DNA from: Escherichia coli | GTDB lineage: Bacteria; Pseudomonadota; Gammaproteobacteria; Enterobacterales; Enterobacteriaceae | Assembly: GCF_003334305.1 (NCBI RefSeq) | Contig: NZ_QOWS01000003.1 | DNA: 64,000 nt | Strand: one strand, 5' to 3' | Part shown: positions 8,255-12,113 of the stretch, one piece after another | How positions within the stretch are numbered: position 1 is the first letter of the stretch | Layout of the letters: the number at the start of each line of letters is the position of its first letter | The notes under the pieces: generated by a model | Databases searched by the model: none | Told to the model about the DNA's origin: nothing | What the model saw: only the letters and a program-made list of their open reading frames with translations | Position numbers and translations under genes: made by a program

Positions 8255-10240
8255 TTAATTTGGGGTTACGATATTCACCCACAAATCGAAATTATCCAGA
8301 CAGGCGATAATTTCTTCCAGTTTCGCGCCATTGCCAATAATTTTGGCTTTCTTCGCTTTTACCAGATCCGCCATTTTGGCTTGCCCGGTCAGCACGGCGT
8401 GCAGATCTTCACGGCTGATGTAGAAAGAGGCGTCAGCTTGGGATTGCAGTGTTTTACGGTAGTTAAGCACGCTATCGTTCAGCGTCAGGTTGAGGTTATC
8501 GCCATTGCTCATATTGAAGTTCAGGCTGATATTTTTACCCGCGGCTTTCGCGCTATCGAGGCGAACGGACATAAAGTCGAACAGCATTTCGACCGACATC
8601 CCGCGAATGGTGTCCGGGGAACCGGTGGTGCCGTGGCTGAACTTATGCACCCCTTCGCGCAGCTCTTTCGCGCCGGTCAGGTAGAAACCGCGCCAGGTGG
8701 CGGACTCGGCCTGATAGCCCAGCTGTTCAAAGTTATTCGCTTGCAGATTCTTCGCGACCTGGTCACCCGGGTTGGCGGCAATCACCTGTTTCAGCAGTTC
8801 TGCCGACCAGCGGTAATCACCTTGCTTGTTCGCTTCTTGCGCCAGGTTGATGACACGGGCAGAACCGCCCAGCGCCTGCACGTAACGTTTACCCATCTCC
8901 ACCTGACCATACGGATGCAGGTTAGCCGGGTTACCGTCGTAATAGCCAAGATAGAAGTTATACACCGCGCGGGCGTTGTGGCTGACAGAACCGTAATAGC
9001 CACGGCTGGCCCAGTTATTGGCAAGTGCAGGCGGCAGTTTAATCATGTCGCCGATTTCATTCATGGTGTAGCCCTGGTTCGCCAGGTGCAGGGTCTGGTC
9101 GTGAATGTACTTGATAGTATCGCGATATTTACCAATATAATCATTGATATGCTTATTGCCCCAGACCGGCCAGGTGTGCGGCATAAACAGGACTTCCGCG
9201 TCGTTACCCCACATATCCAGCGTTTCGTTCAGATACTCGGTCCACTTGCTGGTGTCGCGGGTTTTCGCGCCGCGCAGAGTGTAGAAGTTGTGCAGGGTAT
9301 GCGTGGCGTTCTCGGCGGTACACAGGGCTTTCAGGGCCGGAATATAGAAGTGCATTTCGGCTGGCGCTTCGCTACCTGGGGTCATCAGGAAGTCAAACTC
9401 CAGGCCGTCGATAATCATCTTCTCACCGGTTTTGGTGATGGTTTTGTTCGGTGCGATGATGCTCGGGTAGCCCGATGCCAGCGTTACGCCAAGACCATTG
9501 CCGATGTTACCCTGAGGGTTATGCGCCAGCAGCAGGCCGTAGGAGTAAAGTGCACGGCGGCTCATAATATTACCCGCCAGTACGTTTTCGCTGATGGCTT
9601 CGTCCATAAAGCCAGCAGGGGCGATAACCTGCACTTTACCGGATTTCACATCAGCTTCAGAGATAATGCCTTTCACGCCGCCATAGTGGTCGGTATGGCT
9701 GTGGGTATAAATAACCGCAACAATCGGTTTTTGCGGGCGATTTTGGAAGTAAAGGTCAAGGGCGGCTTTTGCGCTCGGTGGCGTCACCAGCGGGTCGATG
9801 ACAATAATCCCGGTATCACCTTCGATAAAGGTGATGTTGGAGATATCCTGACCGCGAACCTGGTACATTCTGTCGGTGACTTTAAACAAGCCGGAAATAC
9901 CGTTTAACTGCGACTGACGCCACAGGCTAGGGTTAACGGTTTCGGGCGCGGGCGCATTGATATCAAATTTATAATCTTCCCCGCGATAATATGGTTTGCC
10001 ATTAGCATCGCGCAGAATACCTTCATCCAGCAGCGGAGCGATAAATCCACGCTGAGCGTCGTCAAAATCCTGACGATCGCTAAACGGTAATGATTTGGCG
10101 TAATTCTGATTAACCTGTTGGGTATATTGAGTGGCGGCTTTCGCTTCATCTGTTGCGTAAGCGGTATTTACCATCATGCCGCTGGCGGCAGTTAACGCAA
10201 TAACAATTCTGCTCAAACGGAATAACCGAGAGTTATTCAT
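8255..10240 (-). CDS. yjcS: alkyl/aryl sulfatase, metallo-beta-lactamase fold, secreted
   Basis: 661-aa ORF from the second ATG (GGAG 6 nt upstream); signal peptide; [10 protein letters not shown] metal-binding motif. Confidence 0.9.
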
Positions 10241-10492
10241 ATAAATCTCCATTTATCATTTATGTCGTAAATATGTAATCCATGCAAAATACGTCATTTA
10301 AAGCTGGGGTTATCATAATTGGGAATTTGCGACTTTAATAAGTGGAAGTGTGAGCGGAACGATCCATTTTATTAGGCATTTGTGCTGAAGGGGGAAAATT
10401 ACGCGAATTTATTATCTCTGTAAATAATATGAGGTGTTTTATATATTTATTATATATATTGTACTTCGGCAAATACTGAGCACAATTTATCA

Positions 10493-10810
10493 ATGCAACC
10501 GGTGTTTCTTTTTAAAAAACGTACCGGAGCAATGGGCGGTCATGTCGCTGGCACCGCAGGATTCTGCGTTGCTGTGCCAGCCTTTTATTCATGGTCAATG
10601 AGTGAGGTGATTGATAAAGACACCAGGTCGTCAGAGCGCACTGATTATCCGCATTATGCCAGTGAAGTTGCACTGGCTTTTGGTTCACGAGTGGTTGGCC
10701 TCGAACTGGCAAAAATGATTGTGGATGCGTGGCTGGGCGCACAGTACGAAGGCGGTCGTCATCAACAACGCGTGGAGGCGATTACGGCAATAGAGCAGCG
10801 GAGAAATTGA
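10493..10810 (+). pseudogene. rpiB: remnant of ribose-5-phosphate isomerase B (rpiB), N-terminally replaced and internally deleted
   Basis: residues from about 10604 onward read EVIDKDTRSSERTDYPHYASEVALA then FGSRVVGLELAKMIVDAWLGAQYEGGRHQQRVEAITAIEQRRN, which I recognise as the N-proximal and C-terminal parts of E. coli RpiB (about 149 aa) with the ICGTGVG catalytic segment missing; sits directly upstream of yjdP as rpiB does in K-12. Confidence 0.55.
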
Positions 10811-10878
10811 GATTCATCCACTACTTGCATGGATGAGTAATGACTAATGTGGATAGAGTTTCTTTTTGAGGTTGGCTA

Positions 10879-11208
10879 ATGAAACGCTTTCCGCTATTTC
10901 TTTTATTCACCCTGCTCACGCTGTCCACCGTTCCGGCCCAGGCTGATATTATCGACGATACTATTGGTAATATTCAGCAGGCGATTAATGACGCTTATAA
11001 CCCTGACCGTGGGCGAGACTATGAAGATTCGCGCGACGACGGCTGGCAGCGTGAAGTGAGCGACGATCGGCGCAGACAATATGACGACCGCCGCCGCCAG
11101 TTTGAAGATCGCCGCAGGCAGCTGGACGATCGCCAGCGCCAGCTTGATCAGGAGCGTCGGCAACTGGAGGATGAAGAGCGGAGAATGGAAGATGAGTATG
11201 GGCGATGA
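10879..11208 (+). CDS. yjdP: small secreted protein with acidic/RRQ-rich repeats
   Basis: 109-aa ORF with signal peptide MKRFPLFLLFTLLTLSTVPAQA and DDRRRQ repeat-rich C-terminus. Confidence 0.85.
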   Translation: MKRFPLFLLFTLLTLSTVPAQADIIDDTIGNIQQAINDAYNPDRGRDYEDSRDDGWQREVSDDRRRQYDDRRRQFEDRRRQLDDRQRQLDQERRQLEDEERRMEDEYGR

Positions 11209-11230
11209 GGTTGGGTATGGAGCAGGCATC

Positions 11231-11333
11231 GCCCCTCACCCCAATGGGGAGAGGGAGAAAACGAGCGCAATATTCAATATCGAGCACAATCGGTCCCCTC
11301 GCCCCTCTGGGGAGAGGGTTAGGGTGAGGGGGC
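11231..11333. repeat. GC-rich imperfect palindromic intergenic repeat (boxC-like; family name tentative)
   Basis: GCCCCTCACCCCAATGGGGAGAGGG ... CCCCTCGCCCCTCTGGGGAGAGGGTTAGGGTGAGGGGGC; related copies at 20252-20294 and 38131-38206. Confidence 0.5.
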
Positions 11334-11354
11334 CAGCGCGCACATTCCCTCTCA

Positions 11355-12113
11355 TCACGCCACCCCAATCTCCATCCCATCAAACCCCACCTCAAACCCT
11401 GACGGTAGTGCGTTTTCCATCAGCCACGCATCAAACTGGTGGCTGATATGGGTCAGAATCACCTGTGGCGAGCGGATAACCTGATTCAGCGCAAGCACGG
11501 TATTTAAATCACAGTGATTACGCGGTGCATCCGCGCGCGGCGGGTGACTGCAATCAATCACCATCACCTGCGGATGATTATTGAGTAAAAATTTCAGCGT
11601 TTTTTCCGGCAGGCCAGCGGTGTCAGACAGCCACGCCACCCGGCTATGTGCCGTTTCCAGCAGATAACCGAAGGTCAGTTTTGAGTGGTTAAGCGGCAGC
11701 GGCGTGACCTGCAACCCCTGCAAATCAAACACCACAAACGGTTCCACTGTGTGGCTGAAATCAAGCAGGCCCGGATGTTTAAACAGATCGTCGCAGCCCT
11801 GTTCATCCGGCGGGCCGTAGACCGGGATCACATCGCCCACGCCCCAGCGTAGCGGAAATAGCCCCTGGACGTGATCCATATGGTAGTGCGTCAGCAAAAA
11901 CTGCTGGAACGATCCAGGCGACCAGCGATCGGTGAGATCGTGCCGCCCGGCGTCGATCAGGGTGATCGCGTCGTTAAACTTCACTACGCCGCTGCATGGC
12001 TGGCGGCGATACTGCGGCGAGCGCCGCGCTCTGGCGCAGGCCGCGCACTCGCAGCCCCATGCCGGAACGCCCTGTGCGCCGCCAGTGCCGGTGAGCGTGA
12101 GGGTCAGGCTCAT
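11355..12113 (-). CDS. phnP: phosphoribosyl 1,2-cyclic phosphate phosphodiesterase (metallo-beta-lactamase fold)
   Basis: 252-aa protein from the internal Met ([15 protein letters not shown]); HYHMDH metal motif; last gene of the phn operon. Confidence 0.92.

Follow-up and report, generated by a model that had tools for sequence, protein, structure and literature searches.

The als regulon of Escherichia coli K-12 comprises alsRBACEK together with rpiB/alsI, according to Kim et al. (1997) and Poulsen et al. (1999) as cited in a later genome paper (PMC2808357). According to its genome paper, E. coli W is without alsBACEK and for this reason unable to catabolise allose (PMC3032704), and in EAEC 042 the als operon is absent and the strain is allose-negative, as confirmed by Biolog (PMC2808357). 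PCN033 has likewise been reported without als (PMC4578781), and in a study from 2025 alsE was present in only 598 of the 1324 E. coli genomes (PMC12216980). The presence/absence polymorphism and its consequence are already documented, and the polymorphism is common and ordinary. The papers on W and 042 describe the 'absence of the als operon', and the rpiB remnant and the breakpoints are not dissected there. What is added here is the detailed structure of the scar and how often it occurs in the population.

The window, a stretch of 64,000 nucleotides in which all positions below are numbered unless otherwise stated, is part of an E. coli chromosome, and the nearest genomes over 25 kb are those of W-like, bovine and STEC-type strains. 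Its 10241–10878 interval is very probably an old, fixed allele of the E. coli als-rpiB locus that arose by deletion, and represents one of the three main forms that the site takes in the species.

The yjcS-yjdP interval

In K-12, the genes alsK, alsE, alsC, alsA, alsB, alsR(rpiR) and rpiB are found between yjcS and yjdP. When gene coordinates were compared, this interval measured 7270 bp in the K-12-type locus (L002) and 638 bp in the window, and the gene order and coordinates given in an earlier note on this DNA proved exact. The 638 bp are bounded precisely by the start codons of yjcS (10240, the PGAP start) and yjdP (10879), and phnP, phnO, phnN and phnM come after yjdP. Homologues of als or rpiB were sought elsewhere in the 64-kb window and none was found, save for a generic ABC ATPase similarity to phn genes. 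No Rfam family was detected in 9800–11500 at E<=1.

Breakpoints were mapped by blastn of positions 10001–11000 against the K-12 interval, by alignment with outgroups, and by coordinate arithmetic. Three discontinuities relative to K-12 were identified, namely a 78-bp segment, a 6557-bp deletion and a 159-bp deletion inside rpiB, which agrees with the at least two junctions proposed previously. The features of the region, with the evidence for each, are:

8255–10240, minus strand: yjcS (alkyl sulfatase), left flank (ORF list; PGAP WP_001307516.1 in M8 and W)
10241–10464, no strand: yjcS-alsK intergenic part (yjcS promoter side), also in als+ strains (blastn 10002–10464 = L002 11762–12225, 93.8%)
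10465–10542, no strand: 78-bp segment unique to the scar allele, in place of one K-12 nucleotide (outgroup alignment)
10493–10810, plus strand: chimeric ORF of 105 codons, made up of 37 non-RpiB codons, RpiB 29–53 and RpiB 107–149 (BLASTP, ORF list, PGAP)
10543–10594, no strand: alsK 3' flank (terminator-proximal), alsK stop and last codon (blastn L002 12227–12278, 79%, E=3e-7)
10595–10602, no strand: large-deletion junction, 8 nt filler TCAATGAG (gap between blastn segments)
10603–10672, plus strand: rpiB 5' fragment, nt 84–153, RpiB residues 29–51 (blastn 10603–10682 = L002 18836–18915, 87.5%)
10673–10682, plus strand: junction of the in-frame 159-bp (53-codon) rpiB deletion (the two blastn segments overlap there; BLASTP 53-residue gap)
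10683–10810, plus strand: rpiB 3' fragment to nt 450, stop codon 10808–10810 (blastn)
10811–10878, no strand: rpiB-yjdP intergenic region, intact (collinear with L002 19203–19270)
10879–11208, plus strand: yjdP (DDRRRQL-repeat protein), right flank (PGAP WP_000819746.1, identical in K-12, M8 and W)

The part of the interval next to yjcS, 10241–10464, can also be aligned with Escherichia whittamii (L012), with a divergent Escherichia lineage (L011) and with O157. The 78-bp segment that follows has no counterpart in the alignment with K-12, E. whittamii, L011, Klebsiella grimontii and O157, and no homologue of it was found elsewhere in genomes carrying the scar. It provides the ATG (10493) and codons 1–17 of the chimeric ORF. 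Beyond it, 10543–10594 aligns with the corresponding region in L011 and L012. The alsK stop codon occupies 10589–10591 (TCA, TGA on the minus strand), next to the last codon of alsK at 10592–10594. The large deletion corresponds to L002 12279–18835 and extends from just within the 3' end of alsK to rpiB nt 83. No microhomology is evident at its junction, and the junction string is the same in EAEC 042 and other scar haplotypes.

The rpiB sequence resumes at nt 84, and nt 84–163 (10603–10682, 80 nt) are 12.5% divergent from K-12, including the non-conservative changes G34D and W36R. Positions 10673–10810 are 100% identical to nt 313–450 of K-12 rpiB, and the complete blastn segment (10673–11000 versus L002 19065–19392) is 98.5% identical overall with 0 mismatches inside rpiB. 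The 159-bp deletion between the two rpiB pieces is associated with a microhomology of 6 nt when exact (CTGGCT, 10673–10678) or 10 nt with one mismatch (CTGGCTKTTG), and takes out RpiB residues ~54–106, Cys66, Thr68, His99 and Asn100 among them. A native inverted repeat of rpiB (GCCAGT…ACTGGC, 10658–10677) ends exactly at the CTGGCT microhomology and may have favoured slippage. Together with the TTTTGG that follows it after the deletion, this repeat forms a terminator-like hairpin at the internal junction. A scan of 10100–11000 for terminator-like hairpins returned one, the same number as arises by chance in shuffled sequence.

As compared with the K-12 als regulon, the scar occupies the same site between the same flanking genes and retains rpiB nt 84–163 and 313–450 and the alsK stop and last codon with the alsK 3' flank. 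It lacks 6557 + 159 bp, and with them the transporter, kinase, epimerase, regulator and RpiB catalytic core, and has the additional 78-bp segment. The same three discontinuities and the 318-nt ORF are present in E. coli W (ATCC 9637, NC_017635.1), which differs by 1 nt in the 638 and encodes an identical remnant protein (WP_001183287.1). In EAEC 042 (NC_017626.1), which differs by 19 SNPs, the junction strings are identical and the 318-nt remnant ORF is likewise present. The window thus carries the W/042-type allele, recognised by the 78-bp segment, the joint of the alsK tail, TCAATGAG and rpiB nt 84, and the CTGGCT joint inside rpiB.

Two further observations concern non-coding sequence elsewhere in the window. 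The yjdP-phnP spacer (11209–11354) is 146 bp long here, in K-12 and in W, and shorter elsewhere (95 bp in B1.H1.39; 34 bp in 042, AST85 and YL03), and the extra sequence is GC-rich and resembles a repeated extragenic element (…CCCCTCACCCCAATGGGGAGAGGG…). At the start of the window, the match to many near-identical genomes begins at base 74, and in other genomes bases 1–73 map ~11 kb from the remainder. These 73 bases probably represent an extragenic repeat in the gltP-yjcO spacer.

The chimeric reading frame

The 10493–10810 frame, which the earlier note called the sole ORF, is the only sizeable one that is similar to anything. In a BLASTP alignment with K-12 RpiB, ORF residues 38–62 correspond to RpiB 29–53 and residues 63–105 to RpiB 107–149, with a 53-residue internal gap and RpiB residues 1–28 unmatched. 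The similarity to RpiB, on which the earlier reading depended, is significant by BLASTP (E=7e-37), and a tblastn comparison gave E=4e-31. The first ~35 codons had been described as unrelated sequence. They are indeed not RpiB and number 37, but their origin can be assigned, as the 78-bp segment is followed in codons 18–34 by the alsK 3' flank read on the opposite, wrong strand, and codons 35–37 span the filler.

The ORF lacks the ICGTGVG core, as alignment to K-12 RpiB further bears out, and is also without Cys66, Thr68, His99, Asn100 and the N-terminal Asp9/His10. We take Cys66 in ICGTGVG to be the catalytic cysteine of E. coli RpiB, and Thr68, His99, Asn100 and Asp9/His10 to be active-site residues. 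The ORF scored 81.4 bits against TIGR01120 (cutoff 138.65; intact K-12 RpiB 255.7), 64.4 bits against TIGR00689 (cutoff 88.3; intact K-12 RpiB 211.1) and 54.6 bits against NF004051 (cutoff 135; intact K-12 RpiB 202.9), and it fell under the curated cutoffs of the other RpiB/LacA/LacB-family NCBIfam models listed as well. With Pfam PF02502, the only significant match involved ORF residues 61–97 (model positions 102–138, E=6e-9), with a weak match at model positions 25–50 (E=0.13), and the full-length domain (~138–145 profile positions) is not covered. In RefSeq/PGAP, the ORF is called a CDS, 'RpiB/LacA/LacB family sugar-phosphate isomerase' (WP_001183287.1). Judged from these comparisons, it is a pseudogene remnant that would be unable to act as an isomerase.

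Seven scar haplotypes (the window, W, KOr024, AST85, B1.H1.39, YL03 and 042) were compared. They differ by up to about 3%, and the 318-nt frame is open in all. Substitutions in the ORF were 8 non-synonymous (L6F, F7I, A30T, V39G, D43E, E58D, G87C and R104K) and 4 synonymous. As this ratio is near the neutral expectation and the changes are few, the ORF is read as a decaying pseudogene, one that appears to be evolving roughly neutrally. Were it instead a functional new gene, for example one whose product is a small protein with a regulatory or structural role, made from the C-terminal helices of RpiB, the frame would be under selection. In keeping with such a gene, the ORF is intact and of equal length in 8/8 scar alleles examined, two of them 3% divergent, both deletions preserved the rpiB frame, and PGAP annotates a CDS rather than a pseudogene. 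However, with so few substitutions chance alone would leave a 318-nt frame open, and the 8:4 ratio includes the non-conservative G87C among haplotypes, besides W36R relative to intact RpiB. A simple scan of 10100–11000 revealed no sigma-70 consensus promoter, the start context of the ORF is accidental sequence, and the active-site residues of K-12 RpiB are missing. A functional gene is therefore very unlikely, and the pseudogene remnant is the preferred reading.

Distribution of the scar

Population counts were made on 5426 complete E. coli genomes. The 638-bp interval was found collinear and covered in one piece over at least 80% of its length in 1569 of these (~29% of E. coli). A 146-bp probe restricted to the 78-bp segment and the joint of the large deletion matched 1575 genomes, once in each and always under an RpiB-remnant annotation, and had no match in als+ genomes. 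The als interval was present in 3413/5426 genomes, nearly full length in 3367, and an O157-type island in 411/5426, the three classes together not exceeding 5426. A chimeric probe, which detects either the scar or an intact rpiB, matched 4980 genomes, and in none was its coverage at least 80%. As 4980 is close to 3413 + 1570 and at most 3 genomes had matches in two places, the scar and als are essentially mutually exclusive. An intact als/rpiB locus elsewhere in the genome, which the earlier note had named as evidence against its own reading, is absent from the 64-kb window, and by these counts scar and als almost never occur in one genome. In the rest of this strain's genome als is presumably absent as well, to judge from the counts across the population and from nearly identical strains such as W.

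The third state is an island of ~9.6 kb at the same yjcS-yjdP site (10465–10878 in the window), seen in O157:H7, O55:H7, O145:H28 and relatives (L003 6222–12221; L072 10523–19673, O157:H7 PA20). It has the first ~220 bp beside yjcS in common with the scar and, like the scar, is without als and rpiB, but unlike the scar it includes no rpiB remnant. The island encodes a response regulator and hybrid sensor kinase (two-component system), a sugar ABC transporter, a D-lyxose/D-mannose-family isomerase, a ketose-1,6-bisphosphate aldolase and a carbohydrate kinase.

Idiosyncratic events account for part of the small remainder, for instance a loss associated with IS903B that runs from als to phn. In MSB1_9D (L005 6001–7133), IS903B directly adjoins yjcS, nothing is left of the stretch that spans als, the phn operon and the genes up to yjdN, and yjcS and mdtN are also pseudogenes. 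In Escherichia sp. MOD1-EC7003 (L010 9779–10000), which belongs to a cryptic lineage, the first ~221 bp upstream of yjcS are in common and the sequence beyond is unlike all three states. The scar was also considered as a trait of phylogroup B2. This was ruled out, as the closest genomes are bovine, STEC and W-like and the B2 strain DSM 30083T is allose-positive (PMC4334874).

Origin of the scar

The earlier note had left two origins open, a deletion scar or an ancestral pre-insertion state, and only the former held. Under the latter, the short interval would be the original yjcS-yjdP junction, and als-rpiB would have been gained later as an island in K-12-type strains. It is true that als is accessory, being present in ~62% of complete genomes, and that the site behaves as a variable spot, taking another island in the O157 lineage. 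An empty site, however, would have neither the two collinear rpiB pieces nor the alsK stop and 3' flank that are found in the interval (E=7e-37 and 3e-7). Outgroups were obtained from a YjcS scan, which returned E. whittamii L012, the divergent Escherichia L011 and Klebsiella grimontii L014; E. fergusonii, E. albertii and E. marmotae were not among its hits. E. whittamii and L011 are collinear with the entire K-12 yjcS-als-rpiB-yjdP interval at 93% and 91% identity, respectively, and in K. grimontii als and rpiB adjoin yjcS. Because pieces of rpiB and alsK remain in the scar and the outgroups carry als-rpiB beside yjcS, the als+ state is ancestral and the short allele derived, which makes a pre-insertion state extremely unlikely. 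A collapsed or misjoined region in a single assembly would be an even less credible source of the short interval, and we give it practically no weight. Some public assemblies do look artefactual at this locus (1919D3, 1919D62 and BHUCD02), but ~1570 complete genomes, obtained independently in many laboratories, have the identical structure, and the reference strains W and 042 are among them.

The doubtful assemblies deserve a comment of their own. In 1919D62 (L004, GCF_009671125.1, 2638–3276), the scar has a K-12-type rpiB 5' fragment and K-12-type flanks, and yjcS is flagged for an internal stop. In 1919D3 (L077, GCF_009671105.1, 8918–9367), an intact rpiB includes exactly the 8 scar-type SNPs, and window-type flanks (0–4 differences) surround a K-12-type als operon (5 differences/6122 nt). 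The two genomes, which come from one project, are reciprocal mosaics with the partner's SNPs in every stretch that has a homologue in the partner and nowhere else. Natural gene conversion between the scar and the intact allele was considered and rejected as the best reading, since reciprocal mosaics from one project fit a short-read polishing swap exactly. Both alleles are probable artefacts of such a swap. BHUCD02 (4,641,766 bp), which is K-12-sized, displays the same rpiB pattern and looks as if it was assembled by reference guidance to K-12.

For the deletion scar, the following course of events is proposed from the junctions. The ancestor would have had the order yjcS-alsK-alsE-alsC-alsA-alsB-alsR-rpiB-yjdP, from which illegitimate recombination would have removed the 6557 bp between the last codon of alsK and rpiB nt 83, leaving the 8 nt filler at the joint. 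A second loss, of the 159 bp inside rpiB, would have taken place at the 6–10 nt direct repeat CTGGCT(K)TTG, the two losses being either one complex event or successive events. The 78-bp upstream segment would by chance have supplied an ATG in frame with what was left of rpiB, giving rise to the 105-codon ORF, and carriers would be incapable of D-allose uptake and catabolism and would have no RpiB to back up RpiA. The mechanism and order of the deletions are thus proposals drawn from the junctions, and an intermediate allele with the large deletion and the rpiB middle kept was not found in any of the 5426 genomes.

Divergence of the scar allele

The junction-proximal core, consisting of the alsK tail and rpiB 5' fragment, has a mean pairwise divergence of 1–3% among scar haplotypes and is 12.5–21% divergent from K-12 als+. 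Over the same bases, E. whittamii and the L011 lineage differ less from K-12 than the scar core does. Some of the core differences are common to outgroup alleles, and others are unique and include the non-conservative changes in the rpiB fragment. No difference from K-12 is seen in the rpiB 3' piece, which runs on directly into DNA that is homologous in als+ strains. This pattern is consistent with an old deletion whose core would have recombined only among scar carriers.

The flanks were also compared with K-12, and yjcS differs at 122/1986 nt (6.1%) and yjdP-phnN at 65/2215 (2.9%). A deeply split yjcS haplotype, with about twice the divergence of yjdP-phnN, therefore adjoins the presence/absence polymorphism.

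A stronger interpretation of the divergence would regard the scar as a very old allele in a long-lived presence/absence polymorphism, the deletion either predating the phylogroup radiation or having introgressed from an unsampled Escherichia lineage, and the scar persisting beside als+ through selection on rare-sugar use that varies with the environment. Taken as a whole, this interpretation is unlikely. In a weaker variant of it, the in-frame chimeric ORF may be expressed.

Implications

The yjcS-yjdP site with its three states of als, scar and O157-type island represents a tidy, old accessory-operon polymorphism and no new biology. The label 'RpiB/LacA/LacB family sugar-phosphate isomerase' carried by ~1570 genomes would apply to a catalytically dead fragment, for which annotation as a pseudogene is preferable. 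The strain is expected to be allose-negative, matching the published phenotype of W and 042, which have the same scar. Like these two strains, it is predicted to be without a cryptic RpiB back-up for RpiA, which is relevant to metabolic models and to rpiA-knockout engineering in W-type hosts.
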